From a virus (Duplodnaviria; Caudoviricetes): a stretch of 64,000 nt of DNA. The position numbers and the translations under genes are program-made. The stretch lies in the IMG/VR virus record IMGVR_UViG_3300042868_009047. The stretch is one strand, 5' to 3'. How positions within the stretch are numbered: position 1 is the stretch's first letter; each line of letters starts with the position of its first letter. The notes under the pieces were generated by a model. That model did not search any database. It had not been told where the DNA came from and was given only the letters and a program-made list of their open reading frames with translations. This document shows, piece by piece, positions 42,513 to 60,927 of the stretch.

Positions 42513-43874
42513 ATGAAAAAAATTAGTTTAAACGAAGAACTTACCAGAATACAAGAAATGATGGGTGTTACCCATACTAGCCCAGATACCATAAAAGAAC
42601 TTTCCCCTTCAGATATAGTAAACTCAATGAGAGAAGAAGAGATGGGTGAAAACGATGAGGTTAAAGATAAATTCAAAGATCAATACGGTAAAGAAAAAGG
42701 TGAAGAAGTTTATTACGCAACCGCTAATAAACAAGATAGAGATCCAGAAACATTTGAAAAAAATGAAGCGTTTGACCCTAGTGATAGTGATGGTGAAGGT
42801 CTTTCAGATTGTTGTGGTGCACCTATTGTTATGCATGACATTTGTTCTGAATGTGGTGAGCATTGTGAGGCTGAAGAAGAAATAGATGAGAATATTAGTA
42901 AATCAACCGCTATTTTGAATAGACCATCTAACAGGATGACTTTCGAACAGATGGGTATGATTATGGTTCTTGCAGATGAATTGGGTGGGGAAGAAAACAC
43001 TAAAGCCAACGAGTTTGTTTCTGGTGTTGTTACGAAGATGAATGCTGATGAATATATTAAAGAACTTATAACTAAAATTGATAATGAACAAGAAACACCC
43101 AAAGATATCCCTGGGTTCGAAGATACTAGAGACGCATTAGATAATTTAGGTATTAGAGAAGAGGTTGACGAGGAGTCAGCGATCGGTGGTTGGGATCTTG
43201 CTATGGAAAGTATTGATAAATTACAAAAAGAGCTTGAGGAAGAAGAAAAATCTTTTATGGAAACTAGAGGTGGTAAAGATGGTCCAGTTTATGAAAACAA
43301 AGAAATGGGTGAGGCTAGAAAAATCCAACAAGAAACGTATTTTGAGACTCAAGCGGGTGCTTTAGAATCAGCAGAAGAATATGCCACAAATAAAGGTTAT
43401 ACTGTTAATTGGGAAAGTATTAACCCAGAACATGTTGCTTATGGTCAAACGGTTAGTTACAGCGTTGAATTAATGGTTAAAGAGGTTAAAATTAAGGTAA
43501 CTGAATTAGGTATAATTGAATTAAATAAATATGGTGGTTTTACCGCAGATAACTATGAAAAAACTTTTTCGAGTCAATCGGGTGGAAGAACAAAATCGGT
43601 AACGCAACCTACTGATTTCTTTACCAATTCTGGTACTGGAAAGGTTTTTACTTTATCATTTGATTTTAATGAAAATACATTAAAAATGTATTCACAAGGA
43701 GAGTTTCTTGCTTCATTTAAATTTAAATCACTTAAACCTGGCGAAGAAGATGATAGAGGTTGGTTTAAAATAGTGGGAGATTCAAAGGATGGTATGCCAG
43801 CTAGAAAAATGTTACAGATCTCTTTATATAGAATGGAATCTGGTAGATATGAATTAACAAACTACATTAATTAA
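42513..43874 (+). CDS. Acidic multidomain protein carrying the LNE..MMG tag
   Basis: MKKISLNEELTRIQEMMG; CCGAP..CSECGEHC zinc knuckle; C-terminus RKMLQISLYRMESGRYELTNYIN; TATTTATA at 42493-42500. Confidence 0.7.
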   Translation: MKKISLNEELTRIQEMMGVTHTSPDTIKELSPSDIVNSMREEEMGENDEVKDKFKDQYGKEKGEEVYYATANKQDRDPETFEKNEAFDPSDSDGEGLSDCCGAPIVMHDICSECGEHCEAEEEIDENISKSTAILNRPSNRMTFEQMGMIMVLADELGGEENTKANEFVSGVVTKMNADEYIKELITKIDNEQETPKDIPGFEDTRDALDNLGIREEVDEESAIGGWDLAMESIDKLQKELEEEEKSFMETRGGKDGPVYENKEMGEARKIQQETYFETQAGALESAEEYATNKGYTVNWESINPEHVAYGQTVSYSVELMVKEVKIKVTELGIIELNKYGGFTADNYEKTFSSQSGGRTKSVTQPTDFFTNSGTGKVFTLSFDFNENTLKMYSQGEFLASFKFKSLKPGEEDDRGWFKIVGDSKDGMPARKMLQISLYRMESGRYELTNYIN

Positions 43875-43875
43875 A

Positions 43876-44142
43876 ATGATAAATTTCATCAAACTATACG
43901 TGATACCCTTTTTGGTTTTGATGATGTTCCAATGTGGTTTTGCGTATCTTACTTTAGTTTATTTAATCGGTAAAGCAAACCCTTTAGATTGGCACCCAGT
44001 ATTATATACATTATTTTTTCAGTTTGTGTTATTCATAGGTTACACAAGTTATAGGGCTTTAACAGATAATGACGAATTTATTGATATAGAAAGTAATCAT
44101 TTTAATTATAAACACGAAGAAGAAAATAAAGACAAAGATTAA
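43876..44142 (+). CDS. Small two-TM membrane protein
   Basis: Two hydrophobic segments. Confidence 0.55.
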   Translation: MINFIKLYVIPFLVLMMFQCGFAYLTLVYLIGKANPLDWHPVLYTLFFQFVLFIGYTSYRALTDNDEFIDIESNHFNYKHEEENKDKD

Positions 44143-44145
44143 TTT

Positions 44146-44676
44146 ATGGAAAACATTAACGAACAAATATCACGTATAAAAACTATGATGGGTTTAAATG
44201 AGGATGGGTCAACCCCACAATCGCAAAACCCAACTGGTACAACAAAACATAAATGGACTGATAAGGTTGTTCGTGGCCCAGGTAATCCTGTCGGTAATGC
44301 ACCCTCTACCATAAGAACAAACCATGGTCCAGGAAACCCTATTGAATTGGCCGAAGATGAATCAACAAAACTTGAATCATTTGCTGAAACAAGATTGGGT
44401 GGTGCTGAAACAATTGCTGGTAACGCCAAAGAAAAAGGTGGTGCCGCTTTATTAACGTACCACCATTTCGAAGTTAAATTAGAATATTACGAAAAAGCTT
44501 CCAAAGGTGAGTTGGATATGGAAGACGCTAAGAAAGAATACAAAGATTTGTTAGAAAAACTATACACATCCACTAAAGATGATATGGGTATTGAACAAAT
44601 AGATTTTCAAGAACTGCTCGGGAAAATGGAAGTTCTAGGTGAACTAATAATTAAAGAAAATGAAAAAGGAGCTTAA
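44146..44676 (+). CDS. Hypothetical protein carrying the LNE..MMG tag
   Basis: MENINEQISRIKTMMGLNE. Confidence 0.65.
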   Translation: MENINEQISRIKTMMGLNEDGSTPQSQNPTGTTKHKWTDKVVRGPGNPVGNAPSTIRTNHGPGNPIELAEDESTKLESFAETRLGGAETIAGNAKEKGGAALLTYHHFEVKLEYYEKASKGELDMEDAKKEYKDLLEKLYTSTKDDMGIEQIDFQELLGKMEVLGELIIKENEKGA

Positions 44677-44692
44677 AAGCTCCTTTTTTTTT
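44663..44692. terminator. Bidirectional terminator between convergent genes
   Basis: AAAAAGGAGCT-TAAA-AGCTCCTTTTT. Confidence 0.8.
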
Positions 44693-44713
44693 TGTCTTAA
44701 GAAATTGTAATTG

Positions 44714-46378
44714 TTATAATCCGTATTTTGATTTATCCGCATTAAAGTTTTGTAATACTTGTGCTGAGGTAAGCGCTGCGTTGTATAAACGAGTTATACC
44801 AATTTTTCCATCAAAGTATTGAGAGTATTCCCCACCATTATAACTACCTATGTAAAGTGGGTTAGTTGAGTTTAATATACTTGGTAAACTATGACTTACA
44901 CTTCCTATACTTACACCATTTACAAATGTTTCAAGTGTATTAGATGCGACATTAGTAAACACATAAACTATCTGATACCAAGTACCAATCGTTCCAACGT
45001 AGTTTGTACTATTAACAAACAATGATGAACCACTACCACTACCTGAACCCAATTGAGCGTAGTATGTAGTATTGGTTGTTCTGATACTATAACTTACATC
45101 TATAGTTAACCCCCCATTATCAAACTTTCCAAGAACAACATCATTACCTAAAACTGCTTGATTCACCCATACTTCCATAGTCCAATCCCCACTTCCAGGC
45201 TCTAATAATACATTATCCGCAATTGCTATTTGTGATGAAGAACCATTATATGTAAAGTATGGTGATGTATATGTGATATTGGACATTGTACCATTCAAAC
45301 CATTACCTGATAAATCATTAATTGTCGTACCTGTTCCAGGGTAACTTGATAAATTACTTGGGTCATAATATAACCTAAGGTTACTTGTTACAGGTGCCAC
45401 AAATCTTGGGGCCAAATAATTGTATTGTTGTGTTATTTCTCCTAACGTTAATTTCCTATTATAAAAATATAAATTCGCTATGTATCCAAATGGTTGTCCT
45501 GCGGTGACATTATTACCCCATTCTAGATGAGTATCTCCACCCGCACCATAAGCAACCGTTCCAACCTGAGTTCCGTTAATATAAAAAATACTTGATGTAT
45601 CATCTCCGACTACCGCATATTGTACCCACACATCTTCATCTGGTGTAACATCATACCCCGAATCTCGGAATACGGAATCATAGTAACCCAAATTATCAGT
45701 TGCAACTTCAACTAAAAGTGGAACACTATTGTTGGTTCTAAGTAAAGATCTCCAATTAGCAGAACTTGAAATGATTCTTGCCCAAGTAATATATGTGTAT
45801 CCCGAAGTTGGTAAGGTAGGACCAGTTCCATCCACGACAACTCTTTTAGTTCCTGTTGTGCAATCAAAACATTTAATTCCATCAAGCACGGTATATGTAG
45901 CTCCCGTTAAAGTATGGTTATACGAACCACTTTGTAAATTAAATACCGTTGTTCCTGAACCTGGGTAACTATCGGTTTCATTAGCGTCTAATTGCATAAT
46001 AAGTCCCGAAGTTACGAGATTTGGTGTATTAATCAAATAATATTTGTTACTAGCGTTAACCCAGATTACAGCAGCCGCAACCGTATTCAACAAAGCCATA
46101 CCACGTCTGTCGTTTAATTTGTTTACTATCGCTAAAAAATCAGCATCACTGCTAGCCACCCAAAATAAAGGTTTTGCGTTACCTTGCGTGCTAAACCCAA
46201 GCTCATATGAGTTGGAAATCATAACATAATCATTGCTATGTGTGGGTGAGTTATACCAAGTTAAACCACCAGTATTCACCCTATAGTCATTAGCAACCGT
46301 ACCAACTTCATGGTTACCATATTTGGTACCATAAGCTGTTACTGTTCCACTATTATATGCTACGACTTTATTGGCCAT
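44714..46378 (-). CDS. Virion-type protein: shared N-terminal domain plus two LamG/concanavalin-A-like domains
   Basis: LDANETDSYPGSGTT and YDPSNLSSYPGTGTT..DLSGNG; W.Q.V.V...FVNG; IGSYNG..FDGKIG..RLYN.AL...V.QNFNA. Confidence 0.8.
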   Translation of the reverse strand: MANKVVAYNSGTVTAYGTKYGNHEVGTVANDYRVNTGGLTWYNSPTHSNDYVMISNSYELGFSTQGNAKPLFWVASSDADFLAIVNKLNDRRGMALLNTVAAAVIWVNASNKYYLINTPNLVTSGLIMQLDANETDSYPGSGTTVFNLQSGSYNHTLTGATYTVLDGIKCFDCTTGTKRVVVDGTGPTLPTSGYTYITWARIISSSANWRSLLRTNNSVPLLVEVATDNLGYYDSVFRDSGYDVTPDEDVWVQYAVVGDDTSSIFYINGTQVGTVAYGAGGDTHLEWGNNVTAGQPFGYIANLYFYNRKLTLGEITQQYNYLAPRFVAPVTSNLRLYYDPSNLSSYPGTGTTINDLSGNGLNGTMSNITYTSPYFTYNGSSSQIAIADNVLLEPGSGDWTMEVWVNQAVLGNDVVLGKFDNGGLTIDVSYSIRTTNTTYYAQLGSGSGSGSSLFVNSTNYVGTIGTWYQIVYVFTNVASNTLETFVNGVSIGSVSHSLPSILNSTNPLYIGSYNGGEYSQYFDGKIGITRLYNAALTSAQVLQNFNADKSKYGL

Positions 46379-46400
46379 CTTTTAAAAAATTAAAACCTAT

Positions 46401-47255
46401 TTATGGATTTTGATCAACAAACCCAAAACAAACTGTGCAATAGTATTCTGTAACAGTATAAGTAAAACTTACACTAGTTACTGTGCCATCTATACGGATA
46501 ATATTAAATCCTTCTTGTCCAGTAAATTGAGTGTATTGTGTTGGTCCTGATGCATTTTGATAAGTTGTATCCACACCAAAAATTGGTGTGAACGGTGCAG
46601 ATACTTGAACTGGAACCTGTAACCCTGGGTTACCAACACTAGCAAACGCAACCAAAGGATCGGTAACAGGTTGACTAAATGTTGCTGTAAACACACCTGT
46701 TGTGGTGTTTCGGATCTGATCCCCAGTGATTGGTACGCCATATGTTTCTGGGAACGTGCTAGCGCTGTACATACCTGGATTCTCTGTTTGCATACCACCG
46801 TTGCTTTGTGTAATAGAAACGGTAATACCGTTTTGACCCACCCCAGCCGCTGAAGAACTTCCGATACTAGTCATTGTCATCCATTGGAATCCTGAACTAC
46901 CAAAACCAGACCAGCTGCTCCAGTAACCTTGGCCATCTAACCAAATCTTTGCATCCCCGCCTGAATCAAAATTTTGACCAAATTGTGTGTTAACCAACCC
47001 AAGAAAAGATTCTTCTGTTAAAGCACCTGATCTGATAAAACGAACAGAAGCTGTTACACCAGGTATTGGTGTTGGTTGTGTGTTACCTGAAACTGGTAAT
47101 GCGATTGTATAACCCAACTCTTCGTCAGGTCCGTTCCAAAATTGTGGATCATTTGTGAAACCATAATCTGGAAATCCAACTGCTAAATCACCAAGCTGTT
47201 CTGTTCCAGCTATTGGTGATCCAGGATTATATGCGAAAGGTCTTGCTGTTGCCAT
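46401..47255 (-). CDS. Virion-type protein: related N-terminal domain plus a different beta-rich C-terminal domain
   Basis: MATARPFAYNPG..QFWNGPDEELGY resembles the N-termini of the LamG genes. Confidence 0.6.
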   Translation of the reverse strand: MATARPFAYNPGSPIAGTEQLGDLAVGFPDYGFTNDPQFWNGPDEELGYTIALPVSGNTQPTPIPGVTASVRFIRSGALTEESFLGLVNTQFGQNFDSGGDAKIWLDGQGYWSSWSGFGSSGFQWMTMTSIGSSSAAGVGQNGITVSITQSNGGMQTENPGMYSASTFPETYGVPITGDQIRNTTTGVFTATFSQPVTDPLVAFASVGNPGLQVPVQVSAPFTPIFGVDTTYQNASGPTQYTQFTGQEGFNIIRIDGTVTSVSFTYTVTEYYCTVCFGFVDQNP

Positions 47256-47258
47256 GAT

Positions 47259-48179
47259 TTAATTAATTGTTTGTGTTTTAAATAATTCTTCATTATATTG
47301 ACTAATTTTTTCAGTCATACTAATAAGCTCCTCAAAAGCGTCTGCTAACTGATACACTGTCATAGAGTGGTTATCAAGTTGATTTGCTAAGTCATCTAGT
47401 GTTCTAATATTATCTGGGTATTCACCAACTTCATACATCTCAACGATGTCATAAAACTTGTTAAATTTACTCTCAAGGTATTTTCTACTTGCTTCCATTT
47501 TTTGGTGGGCGGCTTTCATTTTTTCCAAGTTTTCAAAAACGCTAACTAGAGATGAATTAACAACCGCTGATCCAAATTTTTCGATCAACGCTGTACCCAT
47601 TTGAATATCTTTTTTTGCCTCAACAATAAACTCATCTATCTTTGATGGGTCGTATGAAATACCCTCTTCGTTTAACGAAGCGGTAATTTCGTTTATTTGA
47701 AAAATCTTTCCACCAGGTTGGTTTATCATCTCAACCTCACGAGCGCTGGTCACAGGCTCTTCGGTATCTCTATAAACAAACGTATCATATTTGTATGGAT
47801 CATATGTTATTGATTTTGAGCTACTTGCTGATGGTATGTCAGTTGATTGGTATGGTTTAAAGTCAACCAAATCCCCAATAACGAATGCATGTACATTCTT
47901 TGACATCTCAGATCTAACTTTTTCCATACCACCTTGTCTAACTCTAAACTCAACGTTATTAAGTTTAACATAGTCAGCATGTGCTATTACCAAACCTTTA
48001 TATTGTATTGAGAATGTTTTTTTATGAAGGTTATAGTATACCATAACCCTTTTACCAATATTAGAATCCTCAGCGGGTGCTTCATCATCTGTACCAGTAA
48101 ACATATCCAGTTGGTCTTCATTCAAACCCATCATGGAACGCATCTTAGATATTTCTTCTGTTAATATTGGTTTTTTCAT
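47259..48179 (-). CDS. Tagged protein with conserved phage domain (VYYNLHKK..KNVHAFV)
   Basis: MKKPILTEEISKMRSMMGLNE; helical acidic C-terminus. Confidence 0.65.
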   Translation of the reverse strand: MKKPILTEEISKMRSMMGLNEDQLDMFTGTDDEAPAEDSNIGKRVMVYYNLHKKTFSIQYKGLVIAHADYVKLNNVEFRVRQGGMEKVRSEMSKNVHAFVIGDLVDFKPYQSTDIPSASSSKSITYDPYKYDTFVYRDTEEPVTSAREVEMINQPGGKIFQINEITASLNEEGISYDPSKIDEFIVEAKKDIQMGTALIEKFGSAVVNSSLVSVFENLEKMKAAHQKMEASRKYLESKFNKFYDIVEMYEVGEYPDNIRTLDDLANQLDNHSMTVYQLADAFEELISMTEKISQYNEELFKTQTIN

Positions 48180-48189
48180 TTAAAATAAT

Positions 48190-49002
48190 TTATTTAGTAT
48201 ATTTAATACCACTTTCTACTTCTTGATCAGCTTTTCTAACAAGAGCGTTTGTATCAACCCCATCATCTTTAAAATATTGAAGACCTAAAACCCATAATGG
48301 GTGCTCTCTACAATCATCCATATTAGCTACTTCTGTACTATAAAGATCTGTTGATATAATTCCATCTTCAGCATCAAAATCATATACTAGATTTTTAGGA
48401 GTTAATCGTTTACTTGTATTAGCCATTCTTTCGCTTTGATAAGCCATTCCAGCGTTCATTATCTTTGCTTCTGTTGGAGACATAGCTCTTTTAAATTTAC
48501 CACCTTGGCTAGTAGCAAATCTATCTAAATTACCAGATGCTGAATCAACATCATATGTTTTTTCACCAGAATCATTTGATGATATTTTAATTTTACTATT
48601 TGTATTCTGCTGATTAGAGATATCATATGTTGTTCTACGAGCCCCAAAATTGTAACCTACACCGCCAGTATCTTTTGTACAAGAAACTAATCCAGTGGCT
48701 AAAATAGTACAAACTATCCCAACCATTAATTTATCTTTTATAGCTTCATCTATGTCCATTACGTTAATATTACCACTTTCGTCTTGGCCCATAGTAACAG
48801 TTTTTTCTTCACCATTATGACCTTCACGTTTATCAATTAACTTAACCTCTACTGGTCCGTTATTACCAGTAATGTATGTTTTCATTGATTTTTTAAGTTG
48901 TGCTAATATATCTTTATCGTCAAACATATCCATTTCAGTTTCTTCTAAACCCATCATGGAACGCATCTTAGATATTTCTTCTTTTAGTATTAATTTTTTC
49001 AT
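48190..49002 (-). CDS. Tagged protein with internal hydrophobic helix and lipobox-like LVSC
   Basis: MKKLILKEEISKMRSMMGLEE; IDEAIKDKLMVGIVCTILATGLVSCTKD. Confidence 0.6.
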   Translation of the reverse strand: MKKLILKEEISKMRSMMGLEETEMDMFDDKDILAQLKKSMKTYITGNNGPVEVKLIDKREGHNGEEKTVTMGQDESGNINVMDIDEAIKDKLMVGIVCTILATGLVSCTKDTGGVGYNFGARRTTYDISNQQNTNSKIKISSNDSGEKTYDVDSASGNLDRFATSQGGKFKRAMSPTEAKIMNAGMAYQSERMANTSKRLTPKNLVYDFDAEDGIISTDLYSTEVANMDDCREHPLWVLGLQYFKDDGVDTNALVRKADQEVESGIKYTK

Positions 49003-49032
49003 TTAACTTTTTTTTAATATTTGCTTTTTCAT

Positions 49033-49791
49033 TTATGAGAACATTTTTGACACATTTTCGTACCAATCTGGGAAATATCCTCTTAAATAATATGTCATGG
49101 CTTTTCTTACTAAACCATCCCTATCGGTATTATATTCTTCCCAATCATCCCAAAAATGATCAACGGCTTTAGCGGACGCAGCTTTTAAATCATCAAACAT
49201 CCCGAAGTTAAATTCTGTTGGTTCATTAAGATTAGAATGAATCATTTTATTCATATATCCTTGATCAGAACTACCCCAATCTTCATCGATTGCACCTGAC
49301 TCAACGTCATCGTAATTTTTTGAAGCGTATTTGTTGGCCTCTTCCTCATCGTGAGCATCGATCATTTCTTGATCCCCTGGTGACATACCATCGGTATCCT
49401 GTGCCAATAAATCATCAAATGAGACCATTTTTTCTTCTGGATCACCTTCAAATAGTTCGCTATCCATTTCATCTTTAGCTTTCATAGGTGAATCATAATC
49501 CTTTAAATCACCAACTGGATATCTCTCCCCAGTTTTAGCATTGTACTTAAAGATTGTTTTACCGTTATCACCATCACCTATAAAGTAATGTACGTTATCG
49601 TCACTAAGACTATAGTATAATGGTCTGTCGTAATCATCAAATTCTCTTTGAGCAACTTCTTCACCACTTGCTGATTCAATGGCCGACTTTTCAAAATTAA
49701 ATTCTTCTTTTGAAGACATTTCAAAGTTTTCGTTAAGACCCATTATTTTACGTAAACGTAAAATCTCTTCATTTAATATTAATTTTTTCAT
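49033..49791 (-). CDS. Acidic tagged hypothetical protein
   Basis: MKKLILNEEILRLRKIMGLNE; TATTTATA at 49812-49819. Confidence 0.65.
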   Translation of the reverse strand: MKKLILNEEILRLRKIMGLNENFEMSSKEEFNFEKSAIESASGEEVAQREFDDYDRPLYYSLSDDNVHYFIGDGDNGKTIFKYNAKTGERYPVGDLKDYDSPMKAKDEMDSELFEGDPEEKMVSFDDLLAQDTDGMSPGDQEMIDAHDEEEANKYASKNYDDVESGAIDEDWGSSDQGYMNKMIHSNLNEPTEFNFGMFDDLKAASAKAVDHFWDDWEEYNTDRDGLVRKAMTYYLRGYFPDWYENVSKMFS

Positions 49792-49880
49792 ATTTAATCT
49801 CATATTATTTATATAAATATCACAAAAATGGTGATAAAACCCATTTTCATTGAATTATTTTTTTTCAGTTATGTTGATTA

Positions 49881-50153
49881 TTATATCCCACCCATTAGTG
49901 GATTTGGATCAGTCCATTCTGGTGTTGCCAAAATTGATAGGATTTCACTATAAGTATAAGGACCTTCTTTGGTTGTTAATGTTGAAATGAATAATGGTTG
50001 GTCACCTTCCCATTTTACAAAAGTTTTTGTGCCGTCCACTGATCTGCGAACCGTTTCTGATGATGTTTCTAAAACCTCTGTGAAGTTAATTTGATTTAAT
50101 TCTGATACATTAAATATCATGAATTGTCTATTTGTATATTCTTGTGTTTCCAT
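49881..50153 (-). CDS. Small protein downstream of the LamG pair (possible assembly partner)
   Basis: FMIFNVSELNQINFTEVLETS..RRSVDGTKTFVKWEG. Confidence 0.6.
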   Translation of the reverse strand: METQEYTNRQFMIFNVSELNQINFTEVLETSSETVRRSVDGTKTFVKWEGDQPLFISTLTTKEGPYTYSEILSILATPEWTDPNPLMGGI

Positions 50154-50159
50154 ATTTTT

Positions 50160-51173
50160 TTATAATCCGAATTTTGTTTTTTGTGCGTCAAAGTTTTGAA
50201 GGACTTCTGATGCAGAGAGGGCTCGGTTATAACTTCTAACAACACCTATTTTACCGTCAAAATGAAGTTGATTATAAGTATAAAAAACACCAATTCTTGT
50301 AACAGCATTTTCCACATACGATATTTCTCTTATTACACTATTTTCTTGCACCCCATTTACATATAAAACATTTAAATTATCGGAACTTCTATGAGTTGCA
50401 ACTATGTGATACCACACACCTACTAATGGTGTCCAAGATGTTGTTAAATATTGACCACTAATCATTGCAGCAATGTTTTGTATGGGACCTATTTGTAAAC
50501 TAAAACCCGTGCCCCAACTTGGCATATTTGAAATAATACCATGCCAATTAATCATAACATCCGTATTAACCCAAGCTTCTTGTGTGATATCGCTATTTAA
50601 TAAACCTATTTTATAACCAATATCTACATAATCATCAACACCATCAAACACAATGGAACCACCGTTGGAAGAATTGTATGTTGGGCTATTGGTTAGTATC
50701 CCGTCATTAGCACCAGCTAAATCATACCAAGTTGTCCCAGAACCAGGGTAAGAACCTTTTTGTGAAGCGTCCACATTCAAAACCAAACCATTGGTCACAA
50801 TGTTATCAAGCGTACCGCTAACCATATTAAAAACACTACTCGCAGCAACCCAAGCAAGAGCTGAGTCAATTGTTGTAAAAGGTGCTTGGTTATTCCTTGT
50901 TGGTAATCCATTTATCATCCTAAGCACATTAGCATCAGTCATATCACCGCTTGCCCAGCAAACTGGTTTAGCGTTAGCCAATGTTGTCATACCCAAACTA
51001 AATGTGTCAGAGTAAATTACATATTGATTGGTGGAGTCAGCTCCATTAAACCAAGTTAACCCACCTGGGTTACTTGAGTAACTATCAGACGCAAGACCTA
51101 TCTCTATCTTATTTTTCTTGATGGAGTTGTTGGTCTTGGTTGAGTTATTAAACGCTATTGGTCTTCTTGCCAT
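50160..51173 (-). CDS. LamG-domain virion-type protein (paralogue 2)
   Basis: N-terminal about 150 aa nearly identical to 51179-52222; divergent LamG C-terminus. Confidence 0.8.
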   Translation of the reverse strand: MARRPIAFNNSTKTNNSIKKNKIEIGLASDSYSSNPGGLTWFNGADSTNQYVIYSDTFSLGMTTLANAKPVCWASGDMTDANVLRMINGLPTRNNQAPFTTIDSALAWVAASSVFNMVSGTLDNIVTNGLVLNVDASQKGSYPGSGTTWYDLAGANDGILTNSPTYNSSNGGSIVFDGVDDYVDIGYKIGLLNSDITQEAWVNTDVMINWHGIISNMPSWGTGFSLQIGPIQNIAAMISGQYLTTSWTPLVGVWYHIVATHRSSDNLNVLYVNGVQENSVIREISYVENAVTRIGVFYTYNQLHFDGKIGVVRSYNRALSASEVLQNFDAQKTKFGL

Positions 51174-51178: not shown

Positions 51179-52222
51179 TTATAACCCGTATTTAGTTTTT
51201 GATGCGTTAAAGTTTTGTGTAATTTCAGAACCAGATAACGCTTTATTATAGAATCTAACGGCACCTATTTTACCGTTCCAGTAATAATCACCCCAAACAT
51301 ATGTATGACCACCAATCATAACATTATTAGACCTGTTTTGGTTTATCGTTGGGTTTACTGATGTTTTGGAGCCAGCTAATGTCCCGTTAATGTAGAAAGA
51401 ACTTACAGATCCATTCCATGTGTAAACAATATGATACCAAATATTAGCTGTTGGAAAAGCGTTTACACCAAAATCCATATCATTTGTATGACCACCAGCT
51501 GTGTTCCAGTAAACTAAGTTTAAGTTTGAATTATCTTGATAAAACGCCCACTCCCAACTTGGGTATTCTTTTCCTATAATACCGTAATTACCACCAGATA
51601 TTGTTGATGGTCTCATCCAAAAATCAACACTAACCGAATTAGTGTTATTCCAACTCAAATCATAACCACTATCAACATAATCATTAACACCATCAGAAGA
51701 CATAATACCACTGTCGCTGGCGCTATATACTGCACCATTAGTTAATGTTGATGTAACCCCACCAGCTAAATCATACCAACTTGACCCAGAACCTGGGTAT
51801 GAACCTTTTTGTGAACCATCTAAATTAAAAACCAAACCATCGGTAACAATGTTATCAAGCGTACCGCTAACCATATTATAAATCGAACTAGCTGTAATAA
51901 ACTCCAACGCTGAAGCGATGGTTGTAAAAGGTGCCTGATTGTATCTTGTGGGTAATCCGTTAATTGTTCTAAGAACATTTACATCCGTTAGGTCACCACT
52001 AGCCCAGCAAACTGGTTTGGCGTTTGCAAGAGTGGTCATACCAAGACTAAAGGTATCTGAATAAATAACATATTGCGATGTTGAGTCCGCACCATTAAAC
52101 CAAGTTAGCCCACCTGGACTACTTGCGTAGTTATCAGACGCAACACCAACTTCCACCTTATTTTTTTTAATGGAATTAGCGGTTTTTGTTGAATTATTGA
52201 ACGCAATTGGTCTTCTTGCCAT
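51179..52222 (-). CDS. LamG-domain virion-type protein (paralogue 1)
   Basis: MARRPIAFNNSTK..GGLTWFNGAD..; LDGSQKGSYPGSG..WYDL; WYHIVYTWNG..FYING; GKIGAVRFYNKAL; TATTTATA at 52233-52240. Confidence 0.8.
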   Translation of the reverse strand: MARRPIAFNNSTKTANSIKKNKVEVGVASDNYASSPGGLTWFNGADSTSQYVIYSDTFSLGMTTLANAKPVCWASGDLTDVNVLRTINGLPTRYNQAPFTTIASALEFITASSIYNMVSGTLDNIVTDGLVFNLDGSQKGSYPGSGSSWYDLAGGVTSTLTNGAVYSASDSGIMSSDGVNDYVDSGYDLSWNNTNSVSVDFWMRPSTISGGNYGIIGKEYPSWEWAFYQDNSNLNLVYWNTAGGHTNDMDFGVNAFPTANIWYHIVYTWNGSVSSFYINGTLAGSKTSVNPTINQNRSNNVMIGGHTYVWGDYYWNGKIGAVRFYNKALSGSEITQNFNASKTKYGL

Positions 52223-52276: not shown

Positions 52277-52353
52277 ATGCATCGAAAAAAACAAAATAAA
52301 AATAATATAATCATGTGAATGAAAGCCTCTTCCTTTTGAAGAGGTTTTTTTTT
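52277..52353 (+). promoter_or_regulatory. Leader: short ORF MHRKKQNKNNIIM (52277-52318) followed by a terminator hairpin
   Basis: TATTTATA at 52265-52272; CCTCTTC/GAAGAGG stem (52326-52344) plus T9, upstream of ATG 52378. Confidence 0.5.
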
Positions 52354-52377
52354 GCCCTAAAAAAAACAAAAAAAGAA

Positions 52378-53196
52378 ATGAAAAACACAGAAACTTACCA
52401 CGAGCTGGTACAAAAAATGAGAAGCTTCTTCGTCCAAAGAGGATTTAAAGAAGTACCAACACAATCAAGATTATCAATCCTTGCTGCATGTGAGAACCCA
52501 CACTCAGTTAAAACATTTGAGTACAGCGGAGAGATCTGGCCATTGCCTCAAACGGGACAAATGTGGCTTGAACATGAATTATTAATGAACCCTGAATGGG
52601 AAGGTGTGTTCTGCATCTCAACATCGTACAGAGAAGAGAAGAATCCGATCCCAGGTAGACACGAATTAATATTTCCGATGTTTGAATTTGAATCAAAAGG
52701 AACAATGGAAGACCTGATCAAATTGGAAGGTGACCTTTTGGCACATCTTGGATTTGCCGATTCAATGCATGAGGTGCAATACGAAGATGTATGTGAAGAA
52801 TACGGTGGGGTTCCAATCTTGGAAGACGAACACGAATCAAGAATGTGGAAGGAAAAAGGAAACATCATTTCGCTTCAACATTTCCCAGTTAGAACAAATC
52901 CATTCTGGAATATGAAACATGATGAAGATGGAATCTTTAATAAGGTGGATGTTATTATGTATGGACAAGAGACAATCGGATCCGCAGAGAGAAGTTGTGA
53001 CGTGGACAAAATGAAACAAATGTTCTACACAATTGAAAATGGTGGTTACGCCAACAAATTGTTTGAACTATTCGGCAAAGACCGTGTGGAAGCTGAACTT
53101 GAAAAGTTTTTGGAATTTAATTTCTTCCCAAGATTTGGCGGGGGAATCGGAATGACCAGATTGGCAAGAGCTTATGAGTTAATGAAGGGGGAGTAA
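52378..53196 (+). CDS. Class II aaRS catalytic-domain-only paralogue (Asn/Asp-RS-like; candidate asparagine synthetase of the AS-AR type)
   Basis: MRSFFVQRGFKEVPT (motif 1), LPQTGQMWLE, STSYREE..RH..FPMFEFE (motif 2), ETIGSAER, RFGGGIGMTRL (motif 3). No anticodon-binding OB domain. Start moved to MKNTETY. Confidence 0.75.
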   Translation: MKNTETYHELVQKMRSFFVQRGFKEVPTQSRLSILAACENPHSVKTFEYSGEIWPLPQTGQMWLEHELLMNPEWEGVFCISTSYREEKNPIPGRHELIFPMFEFESKGTMEDLIKLEGDLLAHLGFADSMHEVQYEDVCEEYGGVPILEDEHESRMWKEKGNIISLQHFPVRTNPFWNMKHDEDGIFNKVDVIMYGQETIGSAERSCDVDKMKQMFYTIENGGYANKLFELFGKDRVEAELEKFLEFNFFPRFGGGIGMTRLARAYELMKGE

Positions 53197-54192: not shown

Positions 54193-54194
54193 AT

Positions 54195-55037: not shown

Positions 55038-55073
55038 TTAATAAAAATAAACTTATTTTGGTAAAAAGAAATA

Positions 55074-56111
55074 TTAACCAACAAAATTTGTATTATAACC
55101 CATCTCACCGTTGTTGCTTTCGTTTTCAATCTTTTGAGCACTGGTCTTAATTTTAATATATTCTTTTAAATTATTAACTTTATACTTCCTGAGATCATAA
55201 CCCAACATCTCCATTACAAATTTATATTTAGGCTCCGCTTTTGTTCGCATATTATGAAGTTCAGATGACATAACACTATAATATTCGTAATCATATGCAG
55301 CATTTGGCATCAAATAATTATAAAGTTCTTTTTTATAACCAGCTTCCAAATACTCCAATTCACTCTCATCAAATTTAAAAAAATCTAATATTTTTTTTCT
55401 ATTACTTTCATCATTATGCATTAATAAATATAAAAGTCTATCAACACCATATAACTTATTATCTTTAGGTACATATCTTTCTTCTTCATTCCATGATAAT
55501 ACTTTATAAGGATCCACAGCTTTATCTTTAATTTGATTAAAAAAATACCTACGTTCAGTATAAAAATAAATTGGAATGTTATTCTTCTTTACGTAACTCA
55601 TTAATTCGTCTAATTCATCTTTGTACATTTTACCACCACTTTCAATGGAAACATGTATTTCAATAATGTAATCGCTGGCGTTAGGTATTGTGGGTTTATC
55701 TAAGACAATCCTGTCTTCCAATTCCTTACTCTTTAAAGCGTTAATATAATCAGCCTTATCACTCCAATCGGATTCTTTAGAGGAGTATTGCCAATAATCA
55801 ACAGGGAAACCTTTATATCTTTGATTTAATTTTTTACCATCCAATACAATCTTAACTGGGCTTCTGCCATATCCAGCACCTTTACCCTCACCACCTCTAC
55901 TTCTGGTAGCTGAAAAAAAGAAAAACTTGCCACGACTTGTATTTAAATCAGAAGGGGAACCGATATTTGTTGAAGCGTGAAATTCATTCTGTTTTAATAT
56001 ATTAACTAAATTACGAATATACGTAAAATGATATAGGATATCGCTTAAACCTTCATTAAGACCCATCATCTTGCGCATCTTGGCGATTTCGTTTAATATA
56101 TTTTTTTCCAC
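55074..56111 (-). CDS. Tagged protein with putative ADP-ribosyltransferase-like domain
   Basis: MEKNILNEIAKMRKMMGLNE; LYHFT..IL, FFSATRS, ELEDRI spaced like ART-fold catalytic strands. Confidence 0.5.
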   Translation of the reverse strand: MEKNILNEIAKMRKMMGLNEGLSDILYHFTYIRNLVNILKQNEFHASTNIGSPSDLNTSRGKFFFFSATRSRGGEGKGAGYGRSPVKIVLDGKKLNQRYKGFPVDYWQYSSKESDWSDKADYINALKSKELEDRIVLDKPTIPNASDYIIEIHVSIESGGKMYKDELDELMSYVKKNNIPIYFYTERRYFFNQIKDKAVDPYKVLSWNEEERYVPKDNKLYGVDRLLYLLMHNDESNRKKILDFFKFDESELEYLEAGYKKELYNYLMPNAAYDYEYYSVMSSELHNMRTKAEPKYKFVMEMLGYDLRKYKVNNLKEYIKIKTSAQKIENESNNGEMGYNTNFVG

Positions 56112-56118
56112 AATAAAA

Positions 56119-56607
56119 TTAATCTTCTTTAGGTCTATTTAAAAAATTTTTTAATCTATCATTACTATAGGTTAAACCAAGTTCCTTAGTTAGTTTTTCA
56201 AGGGCTGTAACCACTTGAGTCTTATACGGATCCATATGAGCTCTAACAAAAGAACCAGAACCACGATTAAACATAAAACCGTGTAATCGCTGGTCTATTT
56301 GACTAATAGCATATTTTTTCTTTTCTTCTGGTTCTGTTGGCATTCGGTCAACATACTGTTGATTCGATTCAACAAAATCAGTTACCAGTTTATTAAAAGC
56401 TTCCACAAATTCTCTTGCTTTTGTTGGACTTTCTTGCCAAACATCGTTAACGCTAACGCCTTTAACGGACAAACTTTTAATTATTGGTTCCATAGCTCTA
56501 AAACCGTCATCAATTATTTTAACAGAATCAACAAACTCATTTAAATTTTCATTAAGACCCATCATCTTGCGCATCTTGGCGATTTCATTCAACATATTCT
56601 TTTCCAT
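56119..56607 (-). CDS. Tagged hypothetical protein
   Basis: MEKNMLNEIAKMRKMMGLNE; TATTTAT at 56625-56631. Confidence 0.65.
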   Translation of the reverse strand: MEKNMLNEIAKMRKMMGLNENLNEFVDSVKIIDDGFRAMEPIIKSLSVKGVSVNDVWQESPTKAREFVEAFNKLVTDFVESNQQYVDRMPTEPEEKKKYAISQIDQRLHGFMFNRGSGSFVRAHMDPYKTQVVTALEKLTKELGLTYSNDRLKNFLNRPKED

Positions 56608-56763
56608 AATAATCGATTATAAACATAAATACTTGAAACTTTTTTAAAATTTCCTATATTTATTGAAGACCTTGTGATTGGGTTCCATGCGTACTGGATG
56701 CGTTTGAGTTGGAATTGATGCCAACGATATGGACACCAAATACAAAAAAAAATATAAGGAAAA

Positions 56764-57609
56764 ATGTTATACACGTACATTCATACTGTACCTGCGCCAA
56801 GTGCGTTCATCACAGTAAACAAACAAAGACTCCGTCAAGACGGAAAGTCGGTCTACATGAAAGACCAAACCGAGTTCGAGATCGAACTCTACAATCCCAC
56901 AAAAGAAAAAATAATGGCAATGATCGAAATGAATGGTTCACCCATTTCAGATTCGGGCATCATCTTGAAACCAGGCCAAAGGGTATTCCTTGAAAGGTTT
57001 CTGGACAATGAGAAAAAGTTCCTTTACGAAACTTATGTTGTGAACAATAATAATCAAACCAAGGAAGCTATCCAGAACAACGGAAAGGTAACGGTTAAAT
57101 TCCACAAGGAATCAAAAGCGAGACCAAGAAGCATAATCTACGGATCTGTATTTAATAGCTTTGGAAATGGTTTTGGTTCCAATGATACAACCGTTTACAC
57201 TTACACAACAAATTACGAACCCAAAATTACAACCAATTTTTGTAATGATGTGATAGGAACCATAACCCCATCATCCAACAATATCAGCGCTGCCATCAAC
57301 AGCAGCAGAAAGGTGGAGACGGGTTCAGTTGAGCAAGGTGCAAATAGTAATCAGGAATTAAAATCAAGTTATGGAAACTTTGAATGGTTTTACACATGGA
57401 GTAATGAATGGCAGATCATGCCAAACAGCCAACAACCAGTTCAAGCAAAGGATTTGGTTGATAGATGCACAAAATGCAACACCAAATTAAAATCAAACCA
57501 TAAGTTCTGTCCAGAATGCGGTGAAAAGAACATGGGTAAACAAGATCCAGACGAATTCTTGCAATCATTGACAAAGGAACAGTTGATTGAACTATTAAGA
57601 ACAAAATAA
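56764..57609 (+). CDS. Protein with beta-sandwich N-terminal domain and C-terminal zinc ribbon
   Basis: FEIELYNP..NGSPIS..LKPGQRVFLERFLD..KF.YETY; CTKC..CPECG. Confidence 0.7.
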   Translation: MLYTYIHTVPAPSAFITVNKQRLRQDGKSVYMKDQTEFEIELYNPTKEKIMAMIEMNGSPISDSGIILKPGQRVFLERFLDNEKKFLYETYVVNNNNQTKEAIQNNGKVTVKFHKESKARPRSIIYGSVFNSFGNGFGSNDTTVYTYTTNYEPKITTNFCNDVIGTITPSSNNISAAINSSRKVETGSVEQGANSNQELKSSYGNFEWFYTWSNEWQIMPNSQQPVQAKDLVDRCTKCNTKLKSNHKFCPECGEKNMGKQDPDEFLQSLTKEQLIELLRTK

Positions 57610-57630
57610 AATAAGCTTCACAAGGTCATA

Positions 57631-57655
57631 AATCCCGCCAAAAGCGGGATTTTTT
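57631..57655 (+). terminator. Intrinsic terminator
   Basis: AATCCCGC/GCGGGATT plus T-tract. Confidence 0.8.
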
Positions 57656-57694
57656 GTTGTTTTTGGTGATATATATAGGAAAAAGCCCTATATT

Positions 57695-57892
57695 ATGACA
57701 AATGAAGAGATTACAGAGGAAATCTACCACGAAGCCCACGCCAATGGCTTTATTGAAGAATTAAGACAAAAAATTGATGAGTTTAAGGTTTGCATCCATA
57801 ATCACAAACTTCCGCACCATGAAATGGTCCATAAAGCATATTATATGGTAAAACCAGAGGAAACAAACCAAGATTTAGAAGTATTTATATAG
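57695..57892 (+). CDS. Small hypothetical protein
   Basis: ORF track. Confidence 0.55.
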   Translation: MTNEEITEEIYHEAHANGFIEELRQKIDEFKVCIHNHKLPHHEMVHKAYYMVKPEETNQDLEVFI

Positions 57893-57894
57893 AT

Positions 57895-58746
57895 ATGAGC
57901 GTTTTCGATCAATTAAAGGCCAGACATCCAGAAGTAAGGTTCGAACTTTACCCAACGGTTAAGAGTGACACCAAGCGTGTATACCTTACAGGATTCATGG
58001 TACCTTATAGTATGAGAGGAAAGGGACTTGGAACAAAGTTGATGGAAGACCTTATTGAGGTTGCCGATGAAAACGGATTTAAGATAACGCTTACACCATC
58101 AAGCAGTTACGGTGGCAACGTTACCAGGTTGAAAGCTTTTTACAAAGGATTTGGTTTTGTTGAGAACAAGGGAAAAAACGCAGATTTCTCACACAAAGAG
58201 GGTATGTACAGAGATCCAAAAGGGTTGAACGAACATTTAAGAAGATTAAAGCAGGTAATGGGTATTGTTACAGAAACAAGACAAGGAATGCTTAATTGGT
58301 TAAAAGACAAACTACCAAACACTCCTGAATATGTAATAAGGGATTGGGTTTATAAAATGGTTACACAATCAGATGATATAAGCACAAATGAGGGTATTAC
58401 AGAATGGATTGATGAGTGGGTTAAAAATATGAAATGGGAAACTAAGACAAATTTTCCTATAACAATGGATATTTTTACTGATAATACAAAAAAACAGTTG
58501 GAAAGTAGAATTGGGGGTGAAGTAAGACAAGATGTTGACAAAGATACTGAAAGACACGGAACACAAAAAGAATTATTACAGAGTAAGGGGGTTTCCAAAG
58601 AACCAATTATTCTGTTTAAAACCAAAGATGGTAAATATGAATTAGGTGAAGGTTGGCATAGAACCACACAGACATTTATACAATTCCCCGATGGATTTAT
58701 ACAACCTAATGTGTATATCGGACTAAATGCCAAATGGCTAGATTAA
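57895..58746 (+). CDS. GNAT acetyltransferase fused through an internal tag to a ParB/Srx-like domain
   Basis: FMVPYSMRGKGLGTKLM..RLKAFYKGFGF (GNAT); LNEHLRRLKQVMG linker; PIILFK..YELGEGWHR (ParB-like). Confidence 0.65.
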   Translation: MSVFDQLKARHPEVRFELYPTVKSDTKRVYLTGFMVPYSMRGKGLGTKLMEDLIEVADENGFKITLTPSSSYGGNVTRLKAFYKGFGFVENKGKNADFSHKEGMYRDPKGLNEHLRRLKQVMGIVTETRQGMLNWLKDKLPNTPEYVIRDWVYKMVTQSDDISTNEGITEWIDEWVKNMKWETKTNFPITMDIFTDNTKKQLESRIGGEVRQDVDKDTERHGTQKELLQSKGVSKEPIILFKTKDGKYELGEGWHRTTQTFIQFPDGFIQPNVYIGLNAKWLD

Positions 58747-58765
58747 TTATTAACTTATAAATAAC

Positions 58766-59221
58766 ATGGGAACCGAATTAAAAAAGAAAAAACAGCTGAT
58801 AGAAAGATTAAACAGAAGATTGCTTTCTGAATCTGAAATGGAATGCCCGAGAGCGGCCAAGGATATTGAGTTGAACACCAGAAACAGGGACAAGGCAATA
58901 AAAGCTGACTATATTCAATATGGTCCTCTTAATGTTGACGAACCAGCGGGTTACTGGGATGAGTTGGCCAATCACTGGAATACATCAGTTGAGGCGGCAA
59001 AAAAATCATTGTGCGGAAATTGTGTCGCATTTGATGTCTCACCAAGAATGGAAGAATGCATGCCAGGTGAAATTAGTGATGAGGATGGAAAATTGGGTTA
59101 CTGCTGGATGCACCATTTTAAATGTCACTCAGCAAGAACATGCAGAACATGGGCAAAGGGTGGTCCGATAACTGATAATAAAATATCAAACGACTGGCAA
59201 GAAAGAAACCAAAACGATTAA
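58766..59221 (+). CDS. Cys-rich conserved hypothetical protein
   Basis: CP..NTRNR..YGPLN..CGNC..GYCWMHHFKCHSARTC..W..GG. Confidence 0.6.
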   Translation: MGTELKKKKQLIERLNRRLLSESEMECPRAAKDIELNTRNRDKAIKADYIQYGPLNVDEPAGYWDELANHWNTSVEAAKKSLCGNCVAFDVSPRMEECMPGEISDEDGKLGYCWMHHFKCHSARTCRTWAKGGPITDNKISNDWQERNQND

Positions 59222-59222
59222 C

Positions 59223-60314
59223 ATGGAGCAAATGGATTTGAATAGACTTGTTGAGGTGATGGTCTTTATCAACGATGATTTGGTAATCAAAGAAGGAAAA
59301 AAGAAGAAGGCCGACCGTTGTCTTAAGATTGCGAGAAGGAAATATGATAAGCCATCGGCTTACAGATCTGGTGCCATTGTAAGATGTCGTCAGGGAAAGA
59401 TTTGGAAAGGTTTAAGTGAATCTGATATCAATGATGCTCCTGAGGATGTTAAGGATTTAATATATAAAGCTCACGATGCGATCACCAGACCAAAGGGAAA
59501 AGAATACGCCCCAGACGTTCACGAATTGCAAGATTGGATTAACAATCATATTGAACAACAGTCCCAGGGAATGGACGAGGCAAAAAAGACGGACTTCTCA
59601 AAGGAGAAGAAAAGCGGACTCCACGGATGGTTCTCAAGAAGGGGCGGTGGCGGAAGCAAAGGATGGGTTGATTGCAACACATGCAGAAAGGTTGACGGCA
59701 AAAAGAAATGCAAAGCATGCGGAAGACAAAAGGGTGAAACCAGATCAAAGTACCCTTCATGCAGACCAACGCCAGCATCTTGCGGAACACCAGGAAAAGG
59801 AAAGAATTGGGGAAAGACAAAGGAAGAGTCTTACGATATTATGAATGAAGCTGAAGAAAAGGAAAAGAAAAGAATTGCATTGTTGTTCATTGTGATCGAC
59901 AATAAGGTATTGTTATTCAAGAGAAGCCCAGAGGAAACAACAAACGCTGGAAAATACGGAATGTTGGGTGGACACATTGAAAAGGGTGAATCACCAGAGG
60001 CGGCATTGAAAAGGGAAATCAAAGAGGAAGCGGGAGTTGAATTAAAATCCTTCAAGAAATTAAAGACATATGAATTGGATGGCGTTCAATTGAATGTATT
60101 CTATACAAATGAATTCGACACGGAGAATATCAAGTTGGATAAGAAGGAACATACAGGAAAGAAATTCTTCACACTGGAACAACTGGATGAGATGTCCCCA
60201 GAAGAATGCATTGATACAAATAAAGGAATCGCCAAAGATTACAACAAGAAGGCAAAAGAGGATAAACAGCTCAATGAAACCATTGAGAGAATGAAATCCA
60301 TCATAGGTTTATAA
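59223..60314 (+). CDS. Multidomain protein: basic Cys-rich modules plus NUDIX hydrolase, with C-terminal tag
   Basis: Nudix box GGHIEKGESPEAALKREIKEEAG; ends LNETIERMKSIIGL. Confidence 0.75.
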   Translation: MEQMDLNRLVEVMVFINDDLVIKEGKKKKADRCLKIARRKYDKPSAYRSGAIVRCRQGKIWKGLSESDINDAPEDVKDLIYKAHDAITRPKGKEYAPDVHELQDWINNHIEQQSQGMDEAKKTDFSKEKKSGLHGWFSRRGGGGSKGWVDCNTCRKVDGKKKCKACGRQKGETRSKYPSCRPTPASCGTPGKGKNWGKTKEESYDIMNEAEEKEKKRIALLFIVIDNKVLLFKRSPEETTNAGKYGMLGGHIEKGESPEAALKREIKEEAGVELKSFKKLKTYELDGVQLNVFYTNEFDTENIKLDKKEHTGKKFFTLEQLDEMSPEECIDTNKGIAKDYNKKAKEDKQLNETIERMKSIIGL

Positions 60315-60318
60315 TTCA

Positions 60319-60927
60319 ATGTTATTGAACGAACAAATATCGAAAATGAAAACAATTATGGGCATTTCTGAAGAAATGATAGAGATACCCAATGATAGCA
60401 GTTTAATGAATTTCTTTCATGGTGGCGACTTGGATGAGATCAAATACGATATACAACAAAAAACTGACAGGCAACAATACGGTTCTGGTTTATACCTGAC
60501 AACATATTATGACGTTGCAAAAAAATATGCAAAGGGCAATAGAAAGATGTATTTGGTTTCGGTGCAAAAGGGCATGGATATAAACGATAAGAAGGTGGAT
60601 ATCGAAACTTTAATGCAATTCCTTAATCAAAGCTTCCCCAAAAAAACGGCACAGACCATACTTAATTTAGCTAATTACAGAATACACAATGATGGCATAC
60701 CATTATATTTGGTGAATAACATATTAATAAACCACAATTACCTTAAAGGTCCCAAATCAGTTGCATGGAGAACGTTTCTGGTTGGTTTGGGCGTTGATTA
60801 CGAGATTGTGGATAACGCTTTTGGTTATGGTGACACAATGATGGTTTTATATAACCCAAGTTTAATAAAGAATGTTAAACGAATTGAACCAAAGGATACA
60901 TTGCCCACGTACAATTTAGCGAAATAA
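60319..60927 (+). CDS. Tagged protein with ADP-ribosyltransferase-like (polyvalent-protein type) domain
   Basis: MLLNEQISKMKTIMG; FFHGG..QYGSGLYLTT..VAKKYA..MYLV; terminal MVLYNPSLIK strand. Confidence 0.6.
   Translation: MLLNEQISKMKTIMGISEEMIEIPNDSSLMNFFHGGDLDEIKYDIQQKTDRQQYGSGLYLTTYYDVAKKYAKGNRKMYLVSVQKGMDINDKKVDIETLMQFLNQSFPKKTAQTILNLANYRIHNDGIPLYLVNNILINHNYLKGPKSVAWRTFLVGLGVDYEIVDNAFGYGDTMMVLYNPSLIKNVKRIEPKDTLPTYNLAK

Follow-up and report, generated by a model that had tools for sequence, protein, structure and literature searches.

Why do ten proteins encoded between positions 42,513 and 60,927 of a single stretch of viral DNA share a peptide of about 20 residues? This question is raised by a stretch of 64,000 nt from IMG/VR record IMGVR_UViG_3300042868_009047 (hereafter the window; coordinates refer to this full stretch), which belongs to an uncultured lake-water relative of bacteriophage T4. 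The original prediction, made from the sequence alone, proposed that this peptide (hereafter the tag) loads a set of effectors into the capsid. The present analysis indicates that the tag is probably a prohead-loading and excision module similar to the capsid-targeting sequence (CTS) of T4, a reading to which we give a probability of about 70%. The tag would most likely be an address label for the capsid, since predicted T4-type cut sites lie on both of its sides and since it resembles the tail of the scaffold protein of the phage.

The tag has the consensus x-I-L-N-E-E-I-s-K-M-R-k-M-M-G-L-N-E. The six-frame translation of the whole 64 kb contains exactly 10 matches to a strict regular expression, [KR][LIM][KRQ].[LIVM][LIM]G[LIV], whereas 100 mononucleotide shuffles yielded 0.2 on average and never more than 2. 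These are precisely the ten copies that had been noticed initially. A hidden Markov model (HMM) built from them retrieved no further match above 5 bits in the window, and scanning related genomes revealed clusters of tags there as well. Eight copies stand at the N-terminus (start positions of the genes: 42513, 44146 and 60319, plus strand; 48179, 49002, 49791, 56111 and 56607, minus strand), one is internal and one is C-terminal. The tagged genes are as follows, where pI is the isoelectric point and ART stands for ADP-ribosyltransferase:

42513 to 43874 (+): 453 residues, acidic (pI 4.5), no known family; tag at 42519-42578
44146 to 44676 (+): 176 residues, no known family; tag at 44146-44205
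47259 to 48179 (-): 306 residues, Phage_L5_gp82 domain at residues 41-153 (PF25735, 113.9 bits); tag at 48114-48173
48190 to 49002 (-): 270 residues, no known family; tag at 48937-48996
49033 to 49791 (-): 252 residues, very acidic (pI 4.25), first gene of the unit 49791 to 46378; tag at 49726-49785
55074 to 56111 (-): 345 residues, GTG start, N-terminal DarT/Tpt1-like ART fold of the ART-PolyVal kind; tag at 56049-56108
56119 to 56607 (-): 162 residues, no known family; tag at 56545-56604
57895 to 58746 (+): 283 residues, a GNAT domain, an internal tag at 58219-58275 and a 150-residue domain; no N-terminal tag
59223 to 60314 (+): 363 residues, NUDIX domain at residues 217-322; C-terminal tag at 60264-60311
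60319 to 60927 (+): 202 residues, ART fold of the diphtheria-toxin/PARP class; tag at 60319-60375

What does the tag carry? Eight of these ten proteins have a single body, and only the 57895 protein (GNAT plus a second domain) and the 59223 protein are in two parts. The NUDIX (62 bits), GNAT (30 bits) and Phage_L5_gp82 domains pass the Pfam thresholds. The two ARTs were recognized by their folds. The model of the 60319 protein, which has a predicted local distance difference test (pLDDT) score of 82, best matches chain B of the pre-ejectosome of cyanophage A4, which is located inside the capsid (E = 3.5e-5), then the anti-CRISPR protein 6kyf, which we take to be the ART AcrIF11, and then the catalytic domains of diphtheria toxin and PARP. 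For the 55074 protein, homologues carry PF18760 and the best fold matches are DarT and Tpt1 (E = 2e-3, probability 1.0); its C-terminal half is helical. Half of the tagged proteins of the window have a pI of 4.2-5.0. The cargo initially proposed (ART-like, GNAT, NUDIX, ParB-like and acidic domains) is thus largely retained, except that the ParB-like assignment is reduced to a weak structural lead, residues 135-283 of the 57895 protein having a weakly ParB_N-like fold (template modelling score 0.45-0.49).

The 59223 protein ends with Q-L-N-E followed by T-I-E-R-M-K-S-I-I-G-L and the stop codon, and the next tagged gene begins four bases further on. Its N-terminus (59223-59290, +; …D-L-N-R-L-V-E-V-M-V-F-I-N-D-D), which has the look of a decayed tag with a score that is not significant, may derive from a degenerated tag; it reads …V-E-V-M-G-L-I-N-D-D in L003, one of the related contigs. 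The product of the preceding, untagged gene (58766-59221, +) begins with …K-Q-L-I-E-R-L-N-R-R-L-L-S-E-S-E, which has the same look and likewise no significant score.

Is the tag maintained as a peptide or as a nucleotide sequence? Synonymous sites differ between the non-adjacent copies, indicating that the tag is conserved as protein and not as DNA. These differences, together with the copies located inside or at the end of open reading frames, rule out an element acting at the DNA or RNA level. Arginines of the tag copies are encoded by CGN codons. In the AlphaFold model of the 55074 protein, the tag lies in a helix (residues 2-15). Since 20-24% of shuffled sequences equal the hydrophobic moment of the tag, which is therefore not significantly above that of shuffles, we do not claim that this helix is amphipathic. 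A secretion or lipoprotein signal was dismissed by inspection, the tag being charged and devoid of a hydrophobic core. Two adjacent pairs of tags are very similar at the DNA level: 48087-48183 and 48910-49006 (genes 48179 and 49002; 82% identity over 97 nt) and 56045-56116 and 56541-56612 (genes 56111 and 56607; 90% identity over 72 nt). Such identities point to recent duplication or gene conversion. Therefore, the description of the ten proteins as otherwise unrelated holds for their diverse bodies and is slightly overstated for the tag regions of these neighbours.

How widespread is the tag? A strict degenerate DNA pattern was found in 17 IMG/VR stretches, all of them from relatives of the window phage and carrying one to seven tags apiece, and nowhere in bacterial and archaeal genomes totalling 596 Gb. 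Searches of whole records detected 12 tags in the relative G002 and five in the relative G003, clustered in both. When 1.84 billion representative proteins were searched with a profile built from 46 tags (E ≤ 1e-3), at least 168 protein clusters were retrieved, all from metagenomes. Among the best 150 of them, the tag lies within the first ~30 residues in 143, mostly from residue 1, and 12 have a second or internal copy, mainly in the order tag-body-tag-body. At least 65 unrelated groups can be distinguished among the tagged bodies, few of them with a Pfam family. A word index queried with the first 40 residues of the 48179 protein retrieved orthologues only. In tblastn searches of 50,697 phage records, neither the 60319 protein nor a 29-residue tag had any match, the E-value limit allowing only near-identical tags to pass in the latter case. 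A literature search for six heptamers or octamers of the tag did not retrieve any paper.

Furthermore, the same bodies are split or fused at tags among relatives. The GNAT gene of L003 terminates after a degenerate tag, L017 encodes a 647-residue GNAT-tag-X-NUDIX-tag fusion, and G002 has a GNAT with an N-terminal tag. This fits the initial proposal of a modular, distributed version of polyvalent proteins. Fusion and fission at tags, together with the 82-90% DNA identity of adjacent tags, could also be expected if the peptide had no common partner and were only a duplicated leader, a scar of cassette shuffling or a generic helix aiding folding or expression. A neutral scar would decay, whereas the M-G and the flanking L-x-E motifs of the tag are nearly invariant, and the tag has been kept as a protein sequence, despite synonymous divergence, on at least 65 unrelated bodies and across a clade whose capsid proteins are ~55% identical. 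We therefore regard this explanation as the least probable of those examined.

Linkage of the tag to a modifying enzyme was considered and rejected, since no enzyme family consistently adjoins the clusters of tags. A DUF932 gene (62938-63840, -) lies near the cluster of the window, and DUF932 and PcfJ genes adjoin clusters in two distant contigs, L110 and L111 (14.7 kb and 295.6 kb, respectively), a recurrence that looks like synteny. In the 295.6-kb scaffold, a gene encoding TnpB (OrfB_IS605/Cas12f-like; L111:3995-5182, -) and a sensor kinase/response regulator pair also adjoin the cluster.

Does this phage possess the machinery that a T4-type targeting peptide would require? A contig overlapping the first genes of the window begins within the capsid gene, and the head module was read from IMG/VR relatives of that capsid protein. 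In one of them, L021 (capsid protein 93% identical), the genes include those of a terminase, a portal of the T4 type (PF07230/Portal_T4, 257 bits), a prohead protease of the gp21 type (Peptidase_S77, 63 bits for a cut-off of 27), an acidic gp22-like scaffold of 440 residues and a gp23-like capsid protein sharing 27% identity with T-even gp23. The S77 protease is also encoded by G002 and G003, whose capsid proteins are 66% and 55% identical, respectively. Between the portal and protease genes of L021 lies a gene for a 307-residue AAA ATPase (L021:6418-7341, +), which is also found in G001 and G002 and is absent from G003, G004 and G005; T4 has no such gene at that position. This ATPase was considered as a partner of the tag and rejected, being absent from G003, which has tags.

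The gp21 protease of T4 cleaves after L/I-x-E motifs, and such motifs flank the tag. All of the 149 tags scored have an [LIVM]-x-E motif upstream of their basic core; another immediately follows the glycine in 116 of them and lies at most two residues away in 138, for a background frequency of 1.9% per residue. It should be emphasized that some circularity affects these counts, the profile itself favouring those positions, and that their weight in favour of a loading module is lessened accordingly. For this reason, homologues of a single cargo, the 55074 protein, were examined instead. In 68 homologues of this ART, the domain nearly always begins directly after [LI]-x-E-G, whatever precedes it: a full tag (five cases), a leader of five residues such as M-N-I-N-E, a different leader or a domain of 70-270 residues placed upstream. 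The glutamate at the junction between leader and domain is invariant in a 25-row alignment of the family. In the AlphaFold model of the 55074 protein, the L-N-E that follows the tag belongs to a segment with pLDDT <50 preceding the first strand, so that the second L-x-E would sit in a flexible linker.

The capsid protein provides a further comparison. Throughout the clade, it contains the motif E-N-Q-A-S-x-[ML]-[LI]-N-E-[SA], followed by a variable stretch, and BLAST places its [LI]-N-E beside the L-T-E/A cut site of T-even gp23. In the subclade of the window, L-N-E in the propeptide of the capsid protein is mirrored by G-L-N-E in the tags; in G003, I-N-E in the capsid protein is mirrored by G-V-I-N-E or G-V-I-S-E in the tags. 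This apparent co-variation of tag and capsid cut sites, seen in few lineages, is suggestive. Overall, the S77 protease of relatives, the flanking L/I-x-E motifs, the match with the capsid propeptide and the types of cargo support the proposal of a tag of the T4 CTS type that ensures capsid loading and processing.

To what could such a tag bind? In all of the ~37 relatives, the scaffold ends with [LIV]-x-E-S-x-x-Y-x-N-P-Q-F/L-x-R-M-K-D-L-M-G/S-K-I-K, a tail that holds several invariant columns of the scaffold alignment and is among the best conserved parts of the protein. In one relative, this end reads Q-I-I-R-I-K-E-M-M-G-V-L-K, which is nearly a tag. Columns 7-18 of the tag align by hhalign with residues 426-437 of the 440 residues of the scaffold with an E-value of 1.2e-3, compared to 0.06-0.78 for seven other head families (terminase, portal, two small core proteins, AAA ATPase, protease and capsid protein). 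In one subclade, the protease ends with D-R-M-K-K-L-M-G-x-L-D-x-F-L-S-K (hhalign E = 0.02). Furthermore, five paralogues located directly downstream of the capsid gene in L078 (L078:12386-16745, -) end with …N-Y-Q-x-M-L-N-E-I-R-R-I-K-E-I-M-K/R/G, intermediate in form between the tag and the scaffold tail. T4 sequences show a comparable likeness, the leader of ipII and ipIII, MKTYQEFIAE, resembling the N-terminus of gp22, MLKEQLIAEA. The likeness to the scaffold tail thus provides a concrete rationale for docking. A complex prediction combining residues 1-420 of the L021 scaffold with the tag gave an uncontrolled score of 0.00, which speaks neither for nor against binding. A resemblance between the first half of the tag and the N-terminus of the scaffold, perceived by eye, was not supported by hhalign, whose second-best alignment (E = 0.13) lies elsewhere in the protein.

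The same likeness, together with the acidity that half of the tagged proteins of the window share with the scaffold, could mean that many tagged proteins, notably the acidic ones, are auxiliary components of the scaffold or inner body that derive from the scaffold gene and are degraded or retained in the head instead of being injected. The core of T4, which includes the acidic proteins gp67 and gp68 (PMC9026906), offers a precedent for such components. At least five of the bodies are enzyme folds, which this explanation does not accommodate. It actually is a variant of the loading module, with the same loading and another fate, and it may apply to a subset of the proteins; as a general explanation it is doubtful, although it has more to recommend it than any other alternative discussed here.

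When would the tagged genes be expressed? A motif resembling a promoter, TATTTAT[AG], precedes the first gene of all four tagged transcription units:

42493 to 42500 (+): TATTTATA, 20 nt upstream of gene 42513
49812 to 49819 (-): TATTTATA, heading the unit 49791 to 46378
56624 to 56631 (-): TATTTATG, heading the unit 56607 to 55074
57882 to 57889 (+): TATTTATA, 13 nt upstream of gene 57895 and heading the unit 57895 to 60927

Other sites include those at 18113 (-), 40111 (-), 52240 (-), 53215 (+) and 61527 (-). The window contains 21 sites in total, about the number predicted from its composition, and 14 of them lie 13-40 nt upstream of a gene start on the same strand. The motif also precedes the gene of a 5415-residue fibre and, in L021, those of the terminase, a core protein and the protease. 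By analogy with TATAAATA of T4, we infer that it marks late promoters. The initial statement that several genes carry a late-type motif is thus borne out as regards the motif, which heads the four units and head genes, while the timing itself is assumed. Another motif, TAnnTTTG, which resembles the -7 box of Bacteroidota, precedes other genes (400, 20630, 20716 and 26916); these motifs of host type indicate that the host probably belongs to the Bacteroidota.

The tagged genes begin directly after an array of 13 tRNA genes (40727-42447) and include a NUDIX gene. In T4 (NC_000866, 65.4-73.9 kb), ipII/ipIII, nudE, a tRNA array and ipI are grouped likewise, and the synteny of the region encoding internal proteins may therefore be conserved. 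Other genes are found among or between the tagged units. Three paralogues with a LamG domain (Laminin_G_3; 44714-46378, 50160-51173 and 51179-52222, -) have in common an N-terminal region of ~70 residues and lack the tag; two of them are a tandem pair sharing 79% identity over 300 nt. Between tagged units, the gene 52315-53196 (+) encodes a 293-residue protein resembling class II aminoacyl-tRNA synthetases (tRNA-synt_2, 64 bits) and similar in size to AsnA.

The late-type motif and the presence of LamG-type, possibly external, proteins in the tagged units would also be consistent with a tag that docks late proteins onto another virion or assembly structure (tail, baseplate, fibre or exterior of the portal) or onto a shared chaperone. 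The LamG proteins are nevertheless devoid of the tag although encoded in the same units, and the tagged bodies are enzymes (ART, NUDIX, GNAT) and not adhesins. Moreover, the tag is flanked by motifs of the prohead protease and resembles the tails of two proteins of the prohead core, not those of tail proteins. Docking elsewhere than in the core is therefore improbable.

Could a protein quality machine read the tag? Clp adaptors and unfoldases recognize short terminal peptides at either end of proteins, and the window encodes an 828-residue ClpB/ClpC-like protein with two AAA+ modules (18165-20651, -; AAA_2 228 bits, ClpB_D2-small, UVR motif). The tag could be a recognition peptide for this unfoldase or another such machine, acting either as a degron or as a handle for unfolding that sets the timing of activity, and the conservation of the ATPase in G002, G003, G004 and G005 (55-71% identity) is compatible with this role. 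This ATPase shows no specific linkage with the tag, since it is also present in G004 and G005, fragments with one weak tag or none. Such a handle leaves unexplained the pair of L-x-E motifs, the resemblance to the tail of the scaffold and the internal copies found where domains meet. It is even less probable than docking onto another structure, and only slightly more probable than a scar without partner. Overall, these alternatives retain some probability and all explain less than a prohead-loading and excision module.

Several observations weigh against such a module, besides the circularity mentioned above. Concerning the peptide itself, the first L-x-E falls within the predicted helix, and the tag of the 42513 family ends with MMGV-T-H-T, without the second L-x-E. 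The likeness to scaffold and protease covers only 8-12 aligned residues, with modest E-values (1.2e-3 and 0.02), and the protease of the subclade of the window ends with …F-L-A-N-L-N-K-F-L-K-F, without the motif. For the window phage, the sequences of the protease, of the scaffold and of the N-terminal part of the capsid protein were taken from L021, not from the window itself, and megablast of the region against the 50,697 phage records found no cultured relative. Most tagged bodies are acidic, whereas the internal proteins of T4 are basic. TATTTAT[AG], which is presumed to be late, also precedes genes that are not necessarily those of virion proteins. Finally, the ClpB/ClpC-like ATPase conserved in the clade could in principle read such a tag.

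How, then, would a prohead-loading and excision module work? The helix of the tag, E-I-x-K/R-M/I-K/R-x-M-M-G, would imitate the C-terminal tail of the gp22-like scaffold of the phage. During assembly of the prohead, it would bring the cargo into the scaffolding core or onto the binding partner of the scaffold tail. The gp21-type (S77) protease would then cut at the L/I-x-E that directly follows the helix, and possibly at the preceding L/I-x-E as well. The mature enzyme, freed inside the capsid, would leave with the DNA, like Alt and the internal proteins of T4. The module would operate at both ends of a protein as well as between domains, and since it would be functional in any of these positions, cargo domains could be encoded by separate genes or as small polyproteins. 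Docking, packaging, cleavage and ejection are steps that we infer, and so is the disarming of the host by these enzymes. A more specific version can be proposed, to which we give slightly less than even odds: the tag would be a portable copy of the docking tail of the scaffold (cut site, docking helix, glycine, cut site), any protein acquiring it, terminally or between domains, would join the core of the prohead as a pseudo-scaffold subunit before being cut free, and the arsenal of polyvalent proteins would thus be split, and its members identifiable from their sequences, throughout an uncultured freshwater clade of T4-like phages that probably infect Bacteroidota.

If a loading module is indeed involved, the set of proteins packaged and probably injected by abundant uncultured lake phages could be read directly from their genomes. 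This would provide dozens of candidate enzymes for host takeover or anti-defence (two types of ART, GNAT, NUDIX and many proteins without family). It would also suggest that capsid-targeting peptides arise by copying a terminus of the scaffold, as hinted alike by the T4 leader and the N-terminus of gp22, and, by way of genes that fuse or split at the tag, it would link the internal proteins of T4 with polyvalent proteins. Furthermore, the module could serve as a handle for packaging proteins in engineered phages of Bacteroidota.

How does this system compare with those already described? Like the CTS of T4 (PMC3012670, PMC9026906), the tag is a short leader common to unrelated and fast-evolving proteins, ends with L/I-x-E and is found in phages with a gp21-type protease. 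As with ipI, ipII and ipIII, the genes are neighbours of a tRNA array and of a NUDIX gene, and the leader is similar to one end of the scaffold, namely the N-terminus in T4 and the C-terminal tail here. The tag is however longer (~20 residues compared to 10), shows no alignable likeness to MKTYQEFIAE beyond the hydrophobic-x-E pattern, occurs also in internal and C-terminal positions judging from the sequences, and reaches at least 10 copies per genome region. Its bodies are mostly acidic or enzymes, unlike the small and basic internal proteins of T4. It may therefore be either an analogue or a very distant homologue of the CTS.

Alt of T4 is an ADP-ribosyltransferase that is packaged and injected, and whose N- and C-terminal propeptides are cut by gp21 (PMC9026906, PMC5512222). 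It thus has in common with the proteins described here an ART-fold enzyme with terminal peptides ending in L/I-x-E, and it provides a precedent for C-terminal processing. The two ARTs of the window, whose packaging is predicted, belong to other clades (diphtheria toxin/PARP/AcrIF11-like and DarT/Tpt1-like ART-PolyVal). Polyvalent proteins combine 2-15 effector domains in one polypeptide and are predicted to be packaged and injected with DNA (Iyer et al. 2017, PMC5512222). Their domain repertoire is the same (ART-PolyVal, GNAT, NUDIX, L5 gp82-type and, on a weak lead, ParB-like), but most genes studied here encode a single domain, each with its own address peptide. Neither a fusion with MuF or portal nor a dedicated processing peptidase was seen in these proteins, and their release is ascribed to the prohead protease.

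Two other systems are based on comparable principles. In herpesviruses (assemblin and pre-VP22a) and in lambda (C and Nu3), the scaffold and the maturation protease have a common C-terminal tail that docks to the capsid. The phages studied here may resemble them, as their scaffold ends with a conserved motif preceded by a putative cut site and their protease has a similar end in a single subclade; here the genes are separate instead of nested, and many cargo proteins that are not structural also carry the motif. The cargo-loading peptides of encapsulins are short, terminal and not excised, and they bind the shell directly. As the tag would, they address diverse enzymes into a shell of HK97 fold by means of a short terminal peptide, with a different sequence. 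Overall, the principle is already known from T4, and what is new here is a longer and distinct tag in a separate clade, which resembles the scaffold tail, is not tied to one position and carries a cargo rich in enzymes.

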